This document shows, piece by piece, positions 827-52,127 of a DNA stretch of 64,000 nucleotides. The DNA comes from Escherichia phage OSYSP. Below the pieces are notes generated by a model. That model was not told the DNA's origin, made no database searches, and saw nothing but the letters and a program-made list of their open reading frames with translations. The stretch lies in the sequence record MF402939; one strand, 5' to 3'. Within the stretch, counting starts at the first letter, position 1. The number at the start of each line of letters is the position of its first letter. The position numbers were made by a program, and so were the translations under genes.

Positions 827-3616
827 GTGTTTTCAATCCTACAAGGTCATGCAGGATTTCATCGCGATTTAGCCACAGGCAATTGGCGAGAAGTTAAGGC
901 AGAAGATTATCTTTTTGCTAAAAGATTTTCCTCAAAGCATCCTGAAGGTAAACCAGCTTCAATGCCCTTCAAGTTTGATGTAATTGACGAAGTTGATCCT
1001 CAAACCCTAGTAGAAATGCTTCCTCTTATGAGACGTTTAACGTCTGATCCTCATATCGTTGCGGTACGAGGTAGATGTCTTGCACCTAAAAATAATGTGC
1101 GACGTAAGAAGGGCAACTTTAATGTATCTAATCCAAGTCATATAATCGCAATGGATGTGGATGGTATTGTAGATACAGGAGGTTGTAACAAGTTTGATCT
1201 TGTTGGCATGGCGCGTCATATTATTAGGATGTTGAATAGTATTAGTGAGGATATGTTTCCTCTTGATGCAGGGTTTATTGCTCATGCATCGTCTTCGGCT
1301 GGACTAAAACCAGGTATCCGAATGCATTTAATACTAGAATCTAATGTTAAAGTTACACAGGGTCAGATCAAGTTCTTATTTACATCTATCAACGAAAGTA
1401 GTAGACAAAAGTATGGTTTTGATATTGCCGACTTAGCTTATTACTCTTCAGTACAGCTCCACTATTTTGCAGATCCTTTATTTATTGATGGTATAGTTGA
1501 TCCGTTTAAAGCGGAGGATGCTTCACGTCTGGTATTTGTTAAGGGTTCTAAAGTAAATTTACCTAATAATCTAGTTGACTATGAAACAACTAGAGGGGAG
1601 TTTAAAGAGGAATTCTACTCTTTACTCGATCAAATTAAAGGTAAAAAAGCTGCCTCTGATAAAGTAGAAGAAACCATCAGCGAGTTAGAGGAAGCTGAGG
1701 ATGGTGTATATCTACGTATTATTCCTAAACTCTATCACCGAGCACTAGAGGATGGTGTAGATTTTGGTTGGCTAGAGAAGGAGATCCGCCCAGCTTTATC
1801 TGAGTATATTGCAACTAAAGATAATAGTCGTAATATTCAGGATTATTTTAATAACGGTCGAAAACAGGCTCTGAAAGCATTTGTTAATAATTCTAAACGT
1901 GATATACCTGATGTTTTAAAAGGTATTCCACTTAAAAAGCTAGAAACTAACTCTCTAGAAACAGATAATTTCTTGAAATTAAACACTGTGCCACCAGAAG
2001 GTTATATGACTTTTGTAAAAGCAAGTCTAGGTACAGGTAAAACCACGGCGGTTGTGCGTTGGTTAGATTCAGGAGTTATTAAAGGTAATTTCTTAGCAAT
2101 TACCAATACTAGGGCACTGGTGTCTTCAAATGCCAAGAAATTTAGTGCAGGACAATATGATAAGTCTGTAGATATGCTTAATTTTAAGCGTGGTGCTATT
2201 GACCGTATGTCCACAACTATCCACTCTTTACATAAGTTTAAGAGTTTTATTGGTCAAATTGATGCAATCTTTATCGATGAATGTGATGCAGTAATGAATG
2301 ACCTATTATTCGCCCCGGTTGTTAAGCAACGTCGTGAGTGTATTCAGGTTCTTCGTGATATTCTTGCAACTGCAAAAATCATTATACTATCCGATGGTGA
2401 TATTAGTGCGGAAACAATTGAAGCATATGGTTCTTTGATTGAGTTCGATAAACCAGTTGCATTCTATAATCATCACCGTAAGATGCTGTCAAAAGCCCAC
2501 GCTTATGAGTTTCCAGATGAATCCAGTATTTGGGTTGCACTTCAGACTTCTCTAGAGATGGGGGAGAAATCTATTCTAGTATCTGATTGTGGCCCTGATG
2601 AGCTGAATGAGAAGGGTATGGCACTGCGTCGTAACACGGGTGCGTTAGTTAAGGAAATCCATTCAAACTCTACCTCAGATGTGGATATTCGACGTATTCT
2701 GGATTATACAACTAATGAGCTAATTGATCAACAAATTGATTGCTTATTATGTAGTCCATCCGTAACGAGCGGTGTTGACTTCAACTATTTTGATAACGTA
2801 TTCGTTATTACTAGAACCAGTAATCAAGCGCCAAACATGCGTTTTCAAGCAATCAGGCGCGACCGTGGTGCTCAGAATATCTATTATTTTATTGATAAAT
2901 CCACTAGTGGGTTCTCTGCAGGTTCTGAACAATATAATATTGATGAAGGTTGGCTGGAGTTAGCACAGCAATTATACGCACGTCGTAGAGAGCTGGAATC
3001 TAGAAACTATACTAGTACCTTACGGTATTACTTGCTTGATCAGGGTGCAACTATTGATATTTTCAGCGAAAGCTGGGGAACTATTGAAGGTGCTGGTAAA
3101 GAATATACAGAAGAGCGAATCAAAGCTATTCTGCATTCAACTCCAGATTATTGTGCCCCACGTCATGCAGATGCATATGAAGCTAAACTACTTCTTGTTC
3201 GCTATTATCATCTTGAGTCTATTAAAGATGTAACAGTTGAGCATGTTGAACAATATATCAAAGATAAACCGAATGATCGAGCTGCATTCTTCCATAAGAT
3301 GCACGAGATGTTCTGGGAAGATATTAAAAAGTGTTCAAATGTGACCATTAAACCATTCATAGAGGCTCTGAAAGGTAAGAAGAAAGACTTCTTCCTTAAA
3401 ACAGGTCAGAGTGCTAACCCAAAATATGCTAGAATGTATCTTGGTATGATGGGTATTGGTAAGGATATGAACACTGAAAATATCGTAGACTGGTATAGAA
3501 CCTATTGTAAAATCGAGTGTATGCCAATTCCATATAAGTTCATGACTGACGAGGAAAAACATATGCACGATGAAGCAATGTCAGAGCTAGGTGCTAGAAA
3601 TGACAGTGAAGAATAA
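827..3616 (+). CDS. Large P-loop NTPase, putative replication-associated helicase or initiator; probable GTG start at 827 after an AGGAG Shine-Dalgarno
   Basis: Walker A (GTGKTT) and Walker B-like (IFIDECD) motifs in the ORF translation; position at the head of the replication module; ORF-track start at 749 looks like translated leader. Confidence 0.6.
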   Translation: MFSILQGHAGFHRDLATGNWREVKAEDYLFAKRFSSKHPEGKPASMPFKFDVIDEVDPQTLVEMLPLMRRLTSDPHIVAVRGRCLAPKNNVRRKKGNFNVSNPSHIIAMDVDGIVDTGGCNKFDLVGMARHIIRMLNSISEDMFPLDAGFIAHASSSAGLKPGIRMHLILESNVKVTQGQIKFLFTSINESSRQKYGFDIADLAYYSSVQLHYFADPLFIDGIVDPFKAEDASRLVFVKGSKVNLPNNLVDYETTRGEFKEEFYSLLDQIKGKKAASDKVEETISELEEAEDGVYLRIIPKLYHRALEDGVDFGWLEKEIRPALSEYIATKDNSRNIQDYFNNGRKQALKAFVNNSKRDIPDVLKGIPLKKLETNSLETDNFLKLNTVPPEGYMTFVKASLGTGKTTAVVRWLDSGVIKGNFLAITNTRALVSSNAKKFSAGQYDKSVDMLNFKRGAIDRMSTTIHSLHKFKSFIGQIDAIFIDECDAVMNDLLFAPVVKQRRECIQVLRDILATAKIIILSDGDISAETIEAYGSLIEFDKPVAFYNHHRKMLSKAHAYEFPDESSIWVALQTSLEMGEKSILVSDCGPDELNEKGMALRRNTGALVKEIHSNSTSDVDIRRILDYTTNELIDQQIDCLLCSPSVTSGVDFNYFDNVFVITRTSNQAPNMRFQAIRRDRGAQNIYYFIDKSTSGFSAGSEQYNIDEGWLELAQQLYARRRELESRNYTSTLRYYLLDQGATIDIFSESWGTIEGAGKEYTEERIKAILHSTPDYCAPRHADAYEAKLLLVRYYHLESIKDVTVEHVEQYIKDKPNDRAAFFHKMHEMFWEDIKKCSNVTIKPFIEALKGKKKDFFLKTGQSANPKYARMYLGMMGIGKDMNTENIVDWYRTYCKIECMPIPYKFMTDEEKHMHDEAMSELGARNDSEE

Positions 3617-45770: not shown

Positions 45771-47558
45771 TTAGGTAAGGCGTTGAACTGTTACTCTTAA
45801 TCTCGGTAGGAAAATAGCTGCAGCCTCATCAGCGTGAATAATTACGCCCAATTCAGCATTACCATTTCCTAGATTTTTAATAGTATAAATATATCCGTTT
45901 CTTCTAAATGTTAACTCATCAGGTCTACTTGCCCAAGTTTGAGTATAGCTGTATGCAGTAGTGGAGTGATAAGGGACTAAGTATCCAGGAGGTAAGGTTA
46001 ATATTTGATGGAATATTCCATCACCTTCCGTGTAACTATGCTGTCTTCTTCCTTGTACTTGCCAAGCAACACCACCATATGTGCGTATAGCTCCTCCTGC
46101 GGTATTAATATTCCCCATGATAACTTCAGTAGTTAATATTACTGTTGCGTTAGCGTTAGGCAATCCTAATCCTATGGTGGCCAAAGCTCTATAGTAGTTA
46201 CCTGCTCCAGGATATGTTGGAGTTATATCATCGCCAACGTAAGTGCTAGCAACATTATTAGGAAATAGTCTTAAGGGTACAGTACTAGGACTCCACACAG
46301 CTCCATGCTCATTACCTATAGTGTTATTACTTGAGTTTACGTACCATTGCTTACCCGCTCCGAATTTGTAAATACTAATTTGAGACTTAGCCCCTCCATA
46401 ATCTACGGGAGACCATAAAGATCCATTACTAGATCCTACAATTTCACAGCGCGCAGTAGTATCCCCGAAGGCTCCAGTGTACGCTGCGTTATTTCCAATG
46501 TACTCCATATCTGGCCTATAGCCTAAGTTACCAAAAGCATTTTGGTTGATAAACTTATATCCAGTATTTGGTAAACTAACCCCTTTTATAGTAAAATTAG
46601 ATGGAGTTATAAGTATATCTGACCCAGTAAATGGATTACCGGATACGCCCATATTACCATTAGAGTACCTTAGATTAAGTACATACCAAATAACTTTGGT
46701 AGGTGTAATATTATAACCATCCTGCACATATACTTTCTTAGCGGCCTGTGCTGCTAGATTAGATGTTGAACCTTTACATATATAAACCTTATCAGGGTAA
46801 GTAGGAGATTGGTACAATAAGTTAACATTATCGGGTACTGTGCCTTTTTTACCTACGTAACTTCGTATATTAGAGTTACAAACGTAAAAACAATTATGCC
46901 CTCTATGGGCGGCCCCTATAGGAGCTTGCCAGTTAGGATGCCAGTAGTCAGCATTACCACCGTCTATAGGTACTGTAGACGCTCCCGCTGGAAATCCTGC
47001 TAAAGTCCATGCCCTACCTATAGCCTCACCAGCATATGCTCCTCCCGGCCTATATAAATTAAACCCGGAGGCTTGAGATATAGTACCTCCTGTACCTTGC
47101 CTAGCAATTGATTCTTCATGGCCTAAACCAGAGTTATAAATATAGGTGCCATGTGCTAAACTATTACCTGATGCAAAAGCTGACGTAAGACCTACTTCTG
47201 CACCTGCCCTACCAATAGGCGGATCTTCAAAAAATGTAGTAAATTGACCAACTTGAGATTGAGTACCATTAAGAAAAGCCCTATGAGTACCATTAATCTC
47301 AATAGCAGTTAGTATAACTCTACCTGGGTCATTGGATTTAATATTTATTATGTCAGAAGGCATCTGACATACAAAAAACCCATTTCCGGCATTACCTAGC
47401 CCAGCCTCGTAAGTACCATCAACTAGGACAAATGGCATATCACTATGAAAAATACTATTGGCATTTGGACTATAGTGACGATTAATGTCACCCCCAGATT
47501 CAGTATTTAAAGATAGTACGGTCTTACCATCGCTATACTTTCCAGCGAAAAAACCCAT
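45771..47558 (-). CDS. Receptor-binding protein (pb5/Oad-like, 595 aa)
   Basis: Position after terminase and divergent to the lipoprotein gene, as in T5-like phages; Gly/Asn/Tyr-rich. Confidence 0.65.
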
Positions 47559-47583: not shown

Positions 47584-47625
47584 TTGCTTTTATCCCTCTA
47601 TTTTGCTATAATAGACTCATAAATT
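47584..47625 (+). promoter_or_regulatory. Strong early-type promoter for the lipoprotein gene
   Basis: TTGCTT - 17 bp - TATAAT followed by CATAAATTAGAAATGGAGAG leader. Confidence 0.65.
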
Positions 47626-47643: not shown

Positions 47644-47910
47644 ATGAAAAAGTTTGTGATTGCACTAGTTGCCGCAGTTATGTTGTCTGGTTGTGCACCT
47701 GCCCCCAAACCATTTTGTACGGGATTTGTAAAATCTTTTGGCGGTGCGGGAGAGGAGCATTACGGCCTCAAGGTTCAAAAAGTTCGTATTAAGGGAGATC
47801 GCTTTCCAGTAGTACAGCTCCGTACTAAGTTTGGGTGGTGGGATCTCAGTCAGTTTGACCTTAAATACGGTGATTGTAAATTTAAACTAGAGCAATCTAA
47901 CTACCTGTAA
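47644..47910 (+). CDS. llp: Lytic-conversion lipoprotein (Llp-like receptor-blocking lipoprotein, 88 aa)
   Basis: Signal peptide with lipobox LSGC; divergent from the receptor-binding protein gene. Confidence 0.75.
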   Translation: MKKFVIALVAAVMLSGCAPAPKPFCTGFVKSFGGAGEEHYGLKVQKVRIKGDRFPVVQLRTKFGWWDLSQFDLKYGDCKFKLEQSNYL

Positions 47911-48023
47911 TTAGTATAAAGCAAAAAGACATCCAAGTAAACTAAATTTTTTATTTCTTGGACGGTATACTGGCAGAAACCACTATATAAGAAAAGTAGA
48001 AGTCCTTCTAGGAAGTCGCAAGC

Positions 48024-48215
48024 ATGGTTGGTTATGCACAAACTATAAAATATTTTAAATACCACACTTATAGGAGCATGAAAGATATGTCAAACAAAAG
48101 AAAGAGTAGGCGCGGAGAAGTGTACGATAGTTGGATTAATAGTTTTGGATTCGGAACTATCCTATTCTTTATTTTCGTAGGTTTTTGGTTAGCAGCTATG
48201 GCGGGGTGGATTTAA
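48024..48215 (+). CDS. Small membrane protein with C-terminal transmembrane helix
   Basis: ORF track; hydrophobic C-terminus (ILFFIFVGFWLAAMAGW). Confidence 0.45.
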   Translation: MVGYAQTIKYFKYHTYRSMKDMSNKRKSRRGEVYDSWINSFGFGTILFFIFVGFWLAAMAGWI

Positions 48216-48322
48216 TGGAATGGGTAATTATTGCGTTGCTAGGGATTGTGATTATTGGGCAATGTATTTTAGATAATCACTTAGCTAGAATTGAAACTTT
48301 ACTAACGGAGAAACGTAAATGA
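48215..48322 (+). CDS. Unannotated micro-ORF (about 35 aa, MEWVIIALLGIVIIGQCIL...), single transmembrane helix
   Basis: Hand translation; start overlaps the previous stop (TAATG) and its stop overlaps the next start (ATGA). Confidence 0.35.
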   Translation: MEWVIIALLGIVIIGQCILDNHLARIETLLTEKRK

Positions 48323-48513
48323 TGGAAGTAGTAGCTACACTAATAGTAATACTAGTCTGGGCAACTTTCATTGTTTCTTATAACGCGTATGTTCGCCTAA
48401 AAACTCTAGAGGCCCAGGTAAAGCAGCAACAATTTGCACTAGAAAAATTAGTAGAGCTTCAACGCTGTGATAGTACCCGTATTCTGCAAATTGAGAGGGA
48501 ATTAGATGTTTAG
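48319..48513 (+). CDS. Small membrane protein (transmembrane helix plus coiled coil)
   Basis: ORF track; hydrophobic N-terminus. Confidence 0.45.
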   Translation: MMEVVATLIVILVWATFIVSYNAYVRLKTLEAQVKQQQFALEKLVELQRCDSTRILQIERELDV

Positions 48514-48751
48514 TATTATAATTGCTTTTATTATCGGGATACTCACGGGAGTTTTCGGAATGACTGCGGCAATCAACAAGCATCGTAAATATATTGCGGA
48601 AGTATCGCGGGAGATTGCGGAAAGGGAGCGGAAGTTTGATGAGAAACGTGCGGAGTTCGAACGAGAGTGGTCGGACGGTTCTCGGGCGTCGCGGAAGAGA
48701 TTCCGTGAGTTCAGACCAGAATACAGGTTTGATGACCCTTCTATGCGCTAA
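48506..48751 (+). CDS. Small membrane protein (N-terminal transmembrane helix, charged Arg/Glu-rich tail)
   Basis: ORF track. Confidence 0.45.
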   Translation: MFSIIIAFIIGILTGVFGMTAAINKHRKYIAEVSREIAERERKFDEKRAEFEREWSDGSRASRKRFREFRPEYRFDDPSMR

Positions 48752-48854
48752 TTTGACTTTTGCCAATTTCTTTGGATTACGTACGCGTGGGTGTGTCCAG
48801 TGGCCCCCCAGATGAGAATGAGTCTCATTACCGCCTGGTACTTAGCAGGCTAAT

Positions 48855-48887
48855 AGTCCCGGCATGTTATCATTACACACCGGGACT
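48855..48887. other. Stem-loop (AGTCCCGG ... CCGGGACT) next to the ATGAGAATGAGTCTCAT and TTAGCAGGCTAA motifs
   Basis: Inverted repeat read from the sequence. Confidence 0.4.
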
Positions 48888-48903
48888 ATTTCAACTTTAA
48901 TTA

Positions 48904-49680
48904 CTACGCAACTTTTAATTTCTCAATATATTGTTGCGGGCTGCAACTATATTCTGCGCGTTCTTCTTCGGTCATACCTTCCCAACATAATTGCAGGCGG
49001 TCGGCTAGGAACTGATAATCATTATCATCCTCAAGAGATTCATCGATAAAGGTTTCACCTATCAATGTAACCCCAATCGATAGAATATCGTTAACGGCTT
49101 GTGCGTCCAGCGTTTTAAATCCGTATGATGCCGCCGCTGATAGCACGCCTTTATGATCATCAATCATCGTGAAATCAGCGTTCGGATATAATTGTTTAAA
49201 TAACTCAAAGTAATGGCTTTTATAAATAGCGTCTTTGCTGTGGTATATTTCGCTAACTTTATCAGCCTCAAAATATTTGTGTAGTGTATCGCGGGAAAAT
49301 ACACGGATATTACTATCCCCACGCCCTCGCAATCCTTGTTTACGCAAATAATAATAATCCGACTTGCTCATCAGTCGAGCGGTGCAAATAATGTTTAATG
49401 TATTTGCGTCATTCATGCACTGGCGCATATATGTAACAAGGGGCAATAAAGTATCTTGCATTATTAAATCATGTTTGCAGGCTTCATTTTTATACTTATT
49501 TAAATCTAAATTGCCCTCGCTATCAAAGCAAGGCGCTACACGATGGAAAGAATTAATGATAGTGCCGTCCAGATCCCAAATCATGACGCGGGAAATATGC
49601 GGGAAATTACGGGTAATATTCATTTTAACTTGATTCATTTTGTTACGTTCTCCATTAAAGGGATTTAGTTTATCCAGCAT
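48904..49680 (-). CDS. dmp: HAD-family 5'-deoxyribonucleotidase (Dmp-like); true start possibly at 49638
   Basis: HAD motif I (IWDLDGTI); position next to the A1-like gene. Confidence 0.6.
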   Translation of the reverse strand: MLDKLNPFNGERNKMNQVKMNITRNFPHISRVMIWDLDGTIINSFHRVAPCFDSEGNLDLNKYKNEACKHDLIMQDTLLPLVTYMRQCMNDANTLNIICTARLMSKSDYYYLRKQGLRGRGDSNIRVFSRDTLHKYFEADKVSEIYHSKDAIYKSHYFELFKQLYPNADFTMIDDHKGVLSAAASYGFKTLDAQAVNDILSIGVTLIGETFIDESLEDDNDYQFLADRLQLCWEGMTEEERAEYSCSPQQYIEKLKVA

Positions 49681-50462: not shown

Positions 50463-52127
50463 TTACGCGAAAAATTTACCGTTTTTAAAGTCGATCAAAG
50501 TGCGCTGACCGTTTGCATAGGTAATAACATGCGTTTGCGTCCAGCTTGACGCGCCAACGTTGTAACCCATGTCCAGACTACCAGCTACGCCAGCGGTATA
50601 TACCCCGCCGTAAATGCTTGCCGTATGAGTATGCCCCGTGTTTAATTTGCCCAATTTCTTAAACTGTTTAGGATTGCCACGGCTGCCGTTAATGCCATTG
50701 TGACCGTGTACGCCGCACTCGATGCCTGCAATTTTAAATGATTGGTCAGTTGTTAGGAAAATGGCGTTAAATTCACAACCTGCAACCTTACGCAGCGCAT
50801 AATCAAGCACGTTGAAAGTATCGTCATGATCACCGATTGCCGCGTAAATTGCAGCATTTAGGCGGTGATATAGTTCCGCGTTTGCGGGATCGTCTTTAAT
50901 GTTAGCATTACGATCATCAAGCCAACGGGATAGCGCTAAATCGTGGTTTGATTCCACGATGATTGTTTGAGAAAAATCGCGCTCCATTGACTCCAGCACG
51001 CGCCCCGTATCGATGAGATCATCCAGAACCTTATCACGTCCGGCGGCGTATTGTTTTGCTAGGAATACACCCGAAGCGCGGTTGTGATGGTTGCGGGATG
51101 TAAAATCATGCACGTCATGAATAAACTGATATTTAGGCTTGAGAATATCAAGCAAGCTATTTTCGCCAGCCCATGACGCAACGGCGCAATCGTCATCTAA
51201 TTTTTCGGCGTGAATATCGCCATATTGCAAGCCTAAAACATGCCCCGATGTTTCATAACATCCGGCGGGAGTGGCGCAAATATTCAAATCGTAAAACACG
51301 CCGCTTTCGTCCATCGTTTCAAGCTGGCGAACAAAAAATTCTCCGTCTTCGTCAAACTCAACAACAAGCGCACCGAAATTATGCAGCGCCTCGGCCTTTT
51401 GTCCTGCTTTCTGCTGGATGTAATTTTTTAGGGTTGCCGTTCCAGTTGAATACATACGACGCACTACTTCACCTTTTAAAGCTGGCACGCTTTCGGCGGT
51501 AATTTTAGCGTGACCAATTGCCAGACCTTCCAGATTAAGCGCCGTTGCAGTTTCAGCGAATCCAGAAAGCGGATAATCTGCGGTTGGCAAAACGTTAATT
51601 TCAGCCATGAAAGCAAAACGGCGGTTATTTAAAAACACGTTTTTATTGCAGATATATTTGTCAAATGCGGAATCATATTTTATTCCTTCTGCACCCTCGC
51701 CATTTTGAAAACCGTTTTTGTTATAAATAAACTTGCTAACCAGCAAATCAGCGCCGATATATTTAGCAAATTGCTCCAGTGAGGCTAAAAAGTTTTTATG
51801 CGGGAAAGTATTATTCTGAATCGACGTAATAATAAAGCGTTTACCCTGCTTTACTTCCCATTGCTCAACCGTGCTAGAAACAATCCCCGCCGCTTCTGGA
51901 CGCTCATCGTTTTTAATGGCTTTTGCTACTTTCGCCGCTTTCGGTTTAGCTGGTTTATTTGCTTCCAACCAGTCGCAGATAGCGGTCGAGTGTTTTGTTG
52001 TATCGTAGACCGCTTTTGATATATCGTCGCAGACCTCCAGTTTAGTAGCGCGCAGACGTTTACCATAGAAATTAAAGTCAGCGGCCATTTTCAGGATAAC
52101 GGTTTGTTTTTCTGCGGAAATAATCAT
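50463..52127 (-). CDS. A1: A1-like pre-early protein with metallophosphoesterase domain (554 aa)
   Basis: Phosphoesterase motifs (GDIH, SNHD, GHNG, GHTH) in the C-terminal half; size close to T5 A1; adjacent to the A2-like and dmp-like genes. Confidence 0.65.
   Translation of the reverse strand: MIISAEKQTVILKMAADFNFYGKRLRATKLEVCDDISKAVYDTTKHSTAICDWLEANKPAKPKAAKVAKAIKNDERPEAAGIVSSTVEQWEVKQGKRFIITSIQNNTFPHKNFLASLEQFAKYIGADLLVSKFIYNKNGFQNGEGAEGIKYDSAFDKYICNKNVFLNNRRFAFMAEINVLPTADYPLSGFAETATALNLEGLAIGHAKITAESVPALKGEVVRRMYSTGTATLKNYIQQKAGQKAEALHNFGALVVEFDEDGEFFVRQLETMDESGVFYDLNICATPAGCYETSGHVLGLQYGDIHAEKLDDDCAVASWAGENSLLDILKPKYQFIHDVHDFTSRNHHNRASGVFLAKQYAAGRDKVLDDLIDTGRVLESMERDFSQTIIVESNHDLALSRWLDDRNANIKDDPANAELYHRLNAAIYAAIGDHDDTFNVLDYALRKVAGCEFNAIFLTTDQSFKIAGIECGVHGHNGINGSRGNPKQFKKLGKLNTGHTHTASIYGGVYTAGVAGSLDMGYNVGASSWTQTHVITYANGQRTLIDFKNGKFFA

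Follow-up and report, generated by a model that had tools for sequence, protein, structure and literature searches.

Four overlapping genes for small single-helix membrane proteins beside llp in Escherichia phage OSYSP, orthologues of T5.159 to T5.162, and their possible functions

What do four very small genes encode that lie between the receptor-blocking gene llp and the right terminal repeat of a T5-like phage, and does the position beside llp say anything about their function? The question is raised by a stretch of 64,000 nt from Escherichia phage OSYSP (sequence record MF402939), termed here the window, in which four open reading frames (ORFs) follow one another on the + strand between positions 48087 and 48751. 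A reading made from the letters of the window (the sequence-only reading) had taken them for one coupled operon of single-helix membrane mini-proteins. From the neighbouring lipoprotein gene it had suggested membrane-level functions such as superinfection exclusion, modulation of an injection channel or control of lysis. The four ORFs are almost certainly orthologues of genes T5.159, T5.160, T5.161 and T5.162 of phage T5, and they are real coding genes that form one translationally coupled block. The feature is already known, the ORFs having been annotated since 1994 and 2005.

Four coupled genes of T5-like phages

The RefSeq record of T5 has the four genes in the same place, with lengths of 129 nt (T5.159), 108 nt (T5.160), 195 nt (T5.161) and 246 nt (T5.162), each with the note 'contains single transmembrane domain'. 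The same ORFs are carried as orf1-orf4 by X75922 (1622 bp, 'Bacteriophage T5 llp, oad, dmp genes', 1994), and they appear also as ORF148-151 of AY587007 and as PHROGs 8596, 6369, 5851 and 6447. The window proteins match these PHROG families from end to end and with equal lengths (1-42/42, 1-35/35, 2-64 on 1-64/64 and 1-81/81), the E-values being 3e-32, 3e-26, 3e-35 and 3e-47 for the orthologues of T5.159 to T5.162. PHROGs 8596, 6369 and 5851 are labelled 'unknown function' and PHROG 6447 'membrane protein'. The block of T5 and that of the window have the same order, strand, lengths (42, 35, 64 and 81 aa), overlaps and position. The second ORF had been described as unannotated. It is missing from the list of ORFs that accompanied the window, but T5 has it annotated as T5.160, and it is orf2 of X75922.

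The T5.159 orthologue (ORF1, positions 48087–48215) is 42 aa in length and is 97.6% identical to T5.159. Its N-terminus is basic (KRKSRR), its conserved motif is RGEVY(D/E)SWINSFGFGT, and its transmembrane helix is C-terminal. The T5.160 orthologue (ORF2, positions 48215–48322, 35 aa, 97% identical to T5.160) starts with its transmembrane helix, which is followed by a conserved GQC(I/V)LDNHLARIE motif. The T5.161 orthologue (ORF3, positions 48319–48513, 64 aa, 84% identical to T5.161) also has an N-terminal transmembrane helix, then a heptad-like leucine-rich helix and an invariant C-terminus, ...ERELDV. In the T5.162 orthologue (ORF4, positions 48506–48751, 81 aa, 91% identical to T5.162) the N-terminal transmembrane helix is continuous with a long charged helix that contains 18 K/R and 14 D/E residues. 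Residues 1-67 of T5.162 are the conserved core, with the motifs AINKHR.Y(I/V)A and FEREWSDGSRASR(K/R)RF, and the tail is variable.

All three junctions are overlaps. At the T5.159/T5.160 junction the TAA and the ATG have one base in common at 48215 (TAATG), at the T5.160/T5.161 junction the ATG and the TGA overlap at positions 48319–48322 (ATGA), and T5.161 and T5.162 share 8 nt, ATGTTTAG, at positions 48506–48513. The ...ERELDV end of T5.161 is doubly constrained because the ribosome-binding site and the start of T5.162 coincide there. ORFs 2 to 4 are present on the + strand exactly as the sequence-only reading had them, and its TAATG and ATGA overlaps are found in the sequence.

The start of ORF1 had been placed at 48024, which would give a protein of 63 aa. 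That start is unsupported and is off by 63 nt. Of 8 close relatives, 4 have ACG in place of the ATG at 48024; in T5 this ATG is absent and the region cannot be aligned; and the frame upstream of the ATG at 48087 is open for just 39 nt in three relatives. In the alignment, homology to T5 starts about 40 nt 5' of the ATG at 48087. A GGAG-type Shine-Dalgarno sequence (AGGAG in the window, positions 48072–48076 on the + strand) is found about 10 nt 5' of this ATG and is kept in 17 of the 17 loci compared, and T5.159 is annotated in T5 from the equivalent ATG. Gene callers place the start of the T5.159 family differently, such that database entries range from 40 to 70 aa.

Epseptimaviruses have an extra acidic 104-aa ORF between llp and T5.159, which overlaps the T5.159 start in another frame (L004 1285–1599, BD13_23, with equivalents in L005, L006 and L008; L013 1403–1588). 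T5.159 is mostly unannotated where this ORF is annotated, and one record calls its fragment 'receptor blocking protein'.

The layout of the locus is conserved between phages. Synteny, i.e., the strand of llp, the arrangement from llp to the right terminal repeat and dmp, the order 159-160-161-162 and the overlaps, is identical in T5, chee24, mar004NP2, SHSML-45 and DT57C. Epseptimavirus genomes have the same block layout, with T5.160 or T5.161 occasionally lost. T5.160 is naturally absent from phiR2-01 and smaug and is truncated in Ob_P; T5.161 is naturally absent from L6jm, BUCT632, PECP14, mar003J3, ZJUN2 and smaug. In smaug the T5.159 stop overlaps the T5.162 start directly, and in PECP14, L6jm and BUCT632 the T5.160 gene is joined to T5.162 via TAATG. 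One translationally coupled unit, as had been proposed, is borne out by overlaps that are conserved and that are rebuilt exactly where T5.160 or T5.161 is missing.

Evidence that the four frames are used for coding comes from the pattern of substitutions. The ratio of nonsynonymous to synonymous polymorphism (pN/pS) was determined within Tequintavirus for six collinear genomes, which have an identical 665 nt from the T5.159 start to the T5.162 stop. The values for the annotated frames are 0.09 (T5.159), 0.19 (T5.160), 0.26 (T5.161) and 0.23 (T5.162), and none of the other five frames of any gene gives a lower pN/pS. In the 20 comparisons with these other frames, nearly all values are between 0.34 and 9, with the mirror frame of T5.159, tied at 0.09, as the sole exception. 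When Tequintavirus and Epseptimavirus are pooled, the ratios are 0.25, 0.30, 0.56 and 0.49 (T5.159 to T5.162), with the greatest variation at third codon positions. A check for stop codons or frameshifts widespread among relatives found none. All four frames are under purifying selection.

These data bear on the reading that the block is non-functional, the ORFs having arisen by chance or the true gene being a 132-aa ORF of the minus strand (positions 48368–48766). The ORFs are very short, no protein evidence for them was found, and the minus-strand frame is open over 58–132 codons in relatives. However, pN/pS is lowest in the annotated + frames. The third positions of the antisense ORF coincide with first and second positions of the sense frames, and frames of this type give pN/pS values of 0.8–3. 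The length of the antisense ORF varies among relatives (58 to 132 codons), whereas on the + strand the ribosome-binding sites, starts, stops and lengths are conserved across hundreds of genomes. Codon runs rich in GAR, AAR and CGN are also expected to leave an open antisense frame as their shadow. The minus-strand ORF was rejected as a real gene, its length being unconserved and its pN/pS close to 1 or higher. So far as sequence alone can tell, the chance or antisense reading is already refuted, and it is given hardly any weight here. The sequence-only reading had named frames not conserved in related phages as the outcome that would speak against it; the frames are conserved in hundreds of phage genomes, under purifying selection.

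Architecture and predicted topology

Each of the four proteins has one uncharged hydrophobic stretch of 17-24 residues, and the best 17-residue Kyte-Doolittle mean is 2.2-2.7. This bears out the description of four single-helix membrane mini-proteins. Topology was predicted by the positive-inside rule, with lysine plus arginine (K+R) counted in the 15 residues that flank the helix. The T5.159 protein has 5 such residues on the N side versus 0 on the C side, and no residues follow its C-terminal helix. T5.160, T5.161 and T5.162 have 0 on the N side versus 3, 3 and 4 on the C side; only 0-3 residues precede the helix in these three proteins and none is basic. T5.159 is thus predicted to be tail-anchored with a cytoplasmic N-terminus, and T5.160, T5.161 and T5.162 are predicted to be oriented N-out/C-in. 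The conserved motifs of all four proteins would then be found on the cytoplasmic side, and a predicted 0-3 residues would be periplasmic. The AlphaFold2 model of T5.162 displays a single helix over residues 2-69, with a mean predicted local distance difference test (pLDDT) score of 75.

Sequence searches of Pfam, NCBIfam and PDB gave sub-threshold matches or none, and PADLOC gave nothing. The Pfam profile LapA_dom matches T5.162 with 22.4 bits versus a cut-off of 28, and the Pfam profile DivIC matches T5.161 with an E-value of 0.07 (13.4 versus a cut-off of 28.9 bits). The ZapG-like profile (E 0.026, 15.0 versus a cut-off of 33.5 bits) and FtsL_COG5462 (E 0.011, 15.4 versus a cut-off of 50 bits) are also below threshold. 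The host proteins LapA/YciS, ZapG/YhcB and FtsB/FtsL/DivIC have the same overall architecture, a transmembrane helix plus a cytoplasmic or periplasmic helix. However, the four ORFs are shorter than host proteins of the LapA, ZapG or FtsL type, and with all profile matches below the curated cut-offs homology is unsupported.

Distribution, setting and transcription of the block

The distribution of the genes was measured as the number of phage records with a tblastn match per query. T5.159 is found in 446 records, T5.162 in 442, T5.161 in 306 and T5.160 in at least 189, the last query being 35 aa long with divergent copies below threshold. For comparison, A1 at 80% identity or more, which serves to gauge the number of close T5-like genomes, is found in 441 records. 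T5.159 and T5.162 are essentially universal in Tequintavirus and Epseptimavirus, and T5.160 and T5.161 are often lost. No relatives of T5.162 were found outside T5-like phages: a profile compared with 1.84 billion representative proteins gave 5 matches, all from the same family, and word-indexed searches with T5.162 and T5.159 returned solely T5-like sequences. Some operon-bearing sequences are filed under Listeria, Campylobacter and Corynebacterium phages, and one is a 461-nt contig of Bilophila wadsworthia; these records are most likely contamination or mislabelling.

The identity of T5.161 between Tequintavirus and Epseptimavirus is only 44%. Bas31 (bas31_0190, L016 2426–2581) and Bas33 (bas33_0190) have a fifth coupled ORF, 51 aa in length, which is placed between the homologues of T5.159 and T5.160 and is a T5.160 paralogue with a longer linker (hhalign 95%, 53% identity; phrog_6369, E 1.5e-16). 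Compared for possible paralogy, the profiles of T5.160 and T5.161 give 43.7% in hhalign; both proteins start with ME(W/V)V, which leads into the transmembrane helix and then to an R-(I/L)-x-x-L-E motif.

Related phages outside these two genera show what else may stand at this place. Erwinia phage KEY has a T5.159 homologue (key_181, MSNNNKRGEVLESWMNSFGFGT...), and the metagenomic T5-like contig L020 has a 40-aa version of T5.159. In both, the T5.159 homologue is followed by a differing and unrelated hydrophobic ORF of 34-39 aa that replaces T5.160-162 (KEY, L019 8849–9092; L020 4445–4674). In Sugarlandvirus (Klebsiella phage FZ41, L018 8601–9289) the slot holds ORFs of 74 aa and 153 aa, both unannotated in the record. 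The 74-aa ORF (MEVVI...) has a transmembrane helix and then a heptad-like helix, belongs to PHROG 37669 and is found in 80 Klebsiella phage records. In the 153-aa ORF a transmembrane helix is combined with a charged helix and a tail rich in Ser. Tiny bitopic proteins always fill the slot between the receptor-binding protein and dmp, even without sequence similarity.

The 3' end of the block is also variable. Beyond residue 67 the T5.162 tail has at least three unrelated versions (...EFRPEYRFDDPSMR, ...MSESGDKPVDRRSS and shorter forms). Genes for HNH homing endonucleases are repeatedly found just 3' of the T5.162 homologue (L010 2296–2835, L015 1980–2477, L018 8134–8601, L019 8361–8852 and bas33_0186 in Bas33). 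Together, the tail versions and the HNH genes suggest repeated recombination at that point. In mar004NP2 (OR896837, L001 3712–3756) a partial second copy of the last 15 T5.162 codons is present about 30 nt downstream, within an annotated 31-aa ORF; it may be an assembly artefact at a collapsed terminal-repeat junction or a real duplication.

The window itself comes from a T5-like phage (Tequintavirus), and 1.3 kb around the locus is 94% identical to genomes that include chee24, mar004NP2 and VSe12. On one side of the block are the genes of the receptor module: a receptor-binding protein of the pb5 type (positions 45771–47558, minus strand) and llp (positions 47644–47910, + strand), the upstream neighbour of the four ORFs and not one of them. 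The llp gene encodes an 88-aa protein with a lipobox. SHSML-45, L6jm and BUCT632 have the same Llp (100% identity), and the identity to llp of DT57C is 98.9%. The window protein matches PHROG 1119, 'Cor superinfection exclusion protein', with an E-value of 1.8e-26 and exceeds the cut-off of Pfam LPAM_1, which points to the receptor-blocking (lytic conversion) lipoprotein of the BtuB/BF23 type as its product. From the llp identities, the receptor module is of that same type. On the other side, on the minus strand, are dmp (positions 48904–49680) and A1 (positions 50463–52127), both pre-early genes of the terminal repeat. The start of dmp is ambiguous, in that the longest ORF in the window is 258 aa, whereas in most relatives the annotated start is a downstream ATG that gives 244 aa (735 nt). 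With this order of llp, the four ORFs and the terminal-repeat genes, the four ORFs would be the last unique genes before the right terminal repeat of a linear T5-type genome.

Is the block part of the receptor module? It had been placed immediately after llp. The llp gene is indeed the neighbour on the same strand, but 176 nt separate the llp stop (47910) from 48087. This intergenic spacer (positions 47911–48086, + strand) is common to BtuB-type phages, and the sequence of T5, whose module is of the FhuA type, is unrelated to it until about 40 nt before the T5.159 ATG; the spacer thus differs with the type of receptor and llp module. T5.159-T5.162 are 84-98% identical between T5 and the window (98% for T5.159), while llp and the spacer are unrelated. 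Shared genes beside an unrelated llp and spacer indicate that the operon is a recombination module separate from the receptor-binding/receptor-blocking module, with a breakpoint about 40 nt 5' of T5.159. The receptor-binding/receptor-blocking module is inherited as a unit (PMC8624392, PMC10644984). Co-inheritance of T5.159-162 with the cognate receptor-binding protein was not found. The separation of the operon from the receptor module argues against any receptor-specific role.

The proteins themselves also differ from Llp. The Llp and Cor lipoproteins (T5 Llp, BF23 Llp, and Cor of phi80 and N15) are likewise small envelope proteins made in lytic infection, and llp and the four ORFs are same-strand neighbours that are probably co-expressed. 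However, Llp is an outer-membrane lipoprotein with a lipobox and binds the receptor (PMC9586334). No lipobox and no match to PHROG 1119 or LPAM_1 was found in the four ORFs, in contrast to the neighbouring llp. Unlike Llp, they are without a signal peptide, are predicted to be in the inner membrane and to face the cytoplasm, and do not co-vary with receptor type.

A probable llp promoter is found at positions 47584–47612 on the + strand (TTGCTT, a 17-nt spacer and a TG-extended -10, TGcTATAAT). Its -10 ends 32 nt 5' of the llp ATG, and its position matches the promoter annotated in X75922 (82..110, with the ATG at 142). The scan for consensus promoters omitted it, the -35 matching at 3 of 6 positions. 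It is probably functional and is a candidate for the promoter of the whole llp-to-T5.162 transcript. The terminator scan found no intrinsic terminator in positions 47911–48086, folding of this region is no better than that of shuffled sequences (z = +0.22), and an Rfam scan for RNA elements in the spacers gave nothing near threshold. A sigma-70 promoter belonging to the block was sought in the window spacer and none was convincing. With neither a terminator nor a conserved promoter between llp and T5.159, a single llp-159-160-161-162 transcript from the llp promoter is most likely.

At the other end, a hairpin with an 11-bp stem (AATAGTCCCGG / CCGGGACTATT) and a T-rich tail on the + strand is found at positions 48852–48890. 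The fold of positions 48745–48910 has a z of -2.8 versus shuffles, and X75922 has the equivalent of the hairpin as repeat_region 1312..1351. The hairpin is between the convergent T5.162 and dmp, just past the dmp end on the other strand, and is likely the terminator of the operon. A smaller hairpin is present at positions 48811–48829. In relatives the start of the terminal repeat is annotated 42-166 nt after the T5.162 stop, so that the 48852–48890 hairpin is at or just inside its edge. This variation in the annotated boundaries makes the exact genome end of the window phage uncertain.

Published RNA sequencing (RNA-seq) of tequintavirus Bas33 at 20 min after infection, in two replicates (PMC13250531, Dataset S1), provides an expression profile for the homologous genes. 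Transcripts per million (TPM) are 219/127 for llp, 162/137 for the 51-aa T5.160 paralogue, 462/408 for the T5.161 homologue, 22/13 for the T5.162 homologue and about 1 for the T5.159 and T5.160 homologues (PMC13250531). Overall, transcript levels in the operon region are like those of llp, and the operon genes and llp are at about 0 TPM when infection is arrested after first-step transfer (PMC13250531). The absence of transcript at first-step arrest indicates that the operon genes are not pre-early and are transcribed only after second-step DNA transfer.

Possible functions

What might four such proteins do? The best guess, held with low confidence, is a co-expressed complex of inner-membrane micro-proteins that acts at the cytoplasmic face. 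The block would be read from the llp promoter as one transcript ending at the 48852–48890 hairpin, and its products would be four bitopic inner-membrane micro-proteins, with the conserved amphipathic or charged helices of T5.160-T5.162 placed at the cytoplasmic face. Coupled translation would cause the four proteins to be made together, and they may act as a hetero-oligomeric membrane complex in which T5.159 and T5.162 are the constant core and T5.160 and T5.161 are exchangeable subunits. It is possible, though speculative, that this complex is a receptor-independent companion to Llp in a post-injection 'conversion' of the infected cell envelope, by exclusion or anti-defence. The action would be within the inner membrane or at its cytoplasmic face and not on the outer-membrane receptor or in the periplasm; examples of such a role would be to shut out further DNA at the membrane or to weaken membrane-acting defences.

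Inner-membrane superinfection-exclusion proteins are known from other phages, i.e., Imm and Sp of T4, gp15 of HK97 and SieA of P22. These are likewise small phage inner-membrane proteins expressed in infection, and they illustrate the proposed function. However, they are encoded by single genes, are mostly larger, and some have periplasmic domains, whereas the four proteins here are coupled and have almost no predicted periplasmic exposure. No exclusion-protein family of the Imm, Sp, gp15 or SieA type was found among the PHROG, Pfam, NCBIfam and PADLOC matches.

Several points weigh against a companion role to Llp. The adjacency to llp is weak evidence, the two being separate recombination modules. 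It is also the one ground for superinfection exclusion or channel modulation, and any direct link to the lipoprotein or its receptor is weakened by the separate module and by the 0-3 predicted periplasmic residues. The predicted topology has the positive-inside rule as its sole support. Co-transcription with llp is drawn from the absence of signals, and T5 has a plausible promoter of its own 5' of T5.159 (TTTACA-17-TAGAGT, read from the alignment). The Bas33 RNA-seq represents one time point and undercounts genes of 141 nt or less. In the same table host cydX (114 nt) is at about 0 beside cydA/cydB at about 330 TPM, and a further pair of phage genes (96 and 141 nt) have values of about 1 TPM or less (PMC13250531); from this undercount, the near-zero values of the 108-nt and 129-nt genes are taken as a counting artefact. 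The T5.162 homologue is 246 nt in length, and its level, 20- to 30-fold below the genes on either side, is unexplained (bas33_0187 to bas33_0191). No translation evidence was found for the four ORFs, and a search of the literature by locus tag and topic found no functional study of T5.159-T5.162. The near-universality and strong constraint of T5.159 and T5.162 fit a basic life-cycle role equally well.

Such a life-cycle role is the substance of another reading, host takeover, in which the membrane-tethered cytoplasmic helices would bind and inhibit or redirect a host inner-membrane machine for the replication of the phage itself, rather than to compete with other phages. Candidate targets would be the divisome (FtsB/FtsL/FtsQ-like coiled coils), FtsH or other proteases, transporters and envelope-stress sensors. 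This reading is as tentative as that of an Llp companion and is given equal weight. The conserved motifs are predicted to face the cytoplasm, the constraint on T5.159 is very strong, and T5.159 and T5.162 are near-universal in about 440 genomes, as would fit a core life-cycle role. There is also the weak architecture-level likeness to bitopic host proteins (LapA_dom, ZapG-like, DivIC and FtsL), although family matches that are all below curated cut-offs are typical of the generic similarity of a transmembrane plus charged helix. The early region of T5 has other runs of small transmembrane ORFs. In T5.029-T5.031 (NC_005859, L021 301–988) overlapping small ORFs are annotated with one or two transmembrane domains, and arrays of coupled membrane micro-proteins are therefore not unique to the locus adjacent to llp. 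However, the proteins have no known host partner, natural phages can do without T5.160 and T5.161, and a division inhibitor is already among the T5 pre-early genes (cited in PMC13250531).

A part in the timing of lysis, as an antiholin, a holin modulator or an accessory membrane-disrupting peptide, is unlikely and is the least likely of the functions that the sequence-only reading had suggested. As small single-pass proteins they may resemble class III holins, they have charged tails, T5.159 resembles a small hydrophobic tail-anchored peptide, and the T5 holin is itself annotated as single-pass. T5.161 and T5.162, with an N-terminal transmembrane helix and a charged helical domain, have a superficial likeness to i-spanins, but the predicted topology is the opposite and the soluble parts, at 16-58 aa, lack the length to span the periplasm. 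No embedded or overlapping lipoprotein ORF was found within the block, which does not have the make-up of a two-component spanin, and no holin or spanin match was found in PHROG or Pfam. The lysis genes of T5, endolysin T5.040, holin T5.041 and the Rz-like spanins T5.044/045, are about 90 kb away and apparently complete (PMC4342426), with holin and endolysin at 19.9-21.0 kb of the T5 genome. The genes of the block are arranged with llp, which is reported as an early gene. A role at the genome end is more doubtful still, i.e., membrane anchoring or processing of the right end or terminal repeat in late second-step transfer, replication or packaging. In Tequintavirus, Epseptimavirus, KEY, L020 and Sugarlandvirus the unique sequence always ends with the block, ahead of the right terminal repeat, and A1, the driver of DNA transfer, is membrane-associated (10.1101/866236). 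However, these genes enter the cell last and cannot aid the transfer of their own genome, the four proteins have no DNA-binding features, and linkage to the receptor module and a permissive insertion site at which HNH genes accumulate account for the position just as well. The probability left by these four readings falls to something else.

A bolder form of the Llp-companion reading may be considered as a long shot. The slot in Demerecviridae may be a dedicated array of inner-membrane micro-protein cassettes that seals the membrane against T5-like DNA entry or membrane-acting defences. T5.159 and T5.162 would be the constant core, and recombination precisely at the coupled stop/start junctions would exchange the other subunits. 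The exchangeable members would be T5.160, the 51-aa paralogue, T5.161, and the unrelated analogues of 34-74 aa in KEY and Sugarlandvirus. The hetero-oligomer would then represent an unrecognised, receptor-independent second layer of T5 'lytic conversion', directed against any T5-like competitor.

The points that are mildly new here are comparative: a constant core versus exchangeable members, the exact rebuilding of junctions, independence from the receptor module, and analogues in other genera of Demerecviridae. T5.159 and T5.162 are present in essentially all Tequintavirus and Epseptimavirus genomes under strong constraint, and T5.162 is without relatives elsewhere. T5-like phages serve as models of two-step DNA injection, and they are frequent components of cocktails for therapy and biocontrol. 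If the block is a routine accessory of host takeover, its interest would be local to T5 biology. If it does serve receptor-independent exclusion or envelope conversion, it would add a layer to T5 lytic conversion that is relevant to the design of phage cocktails.

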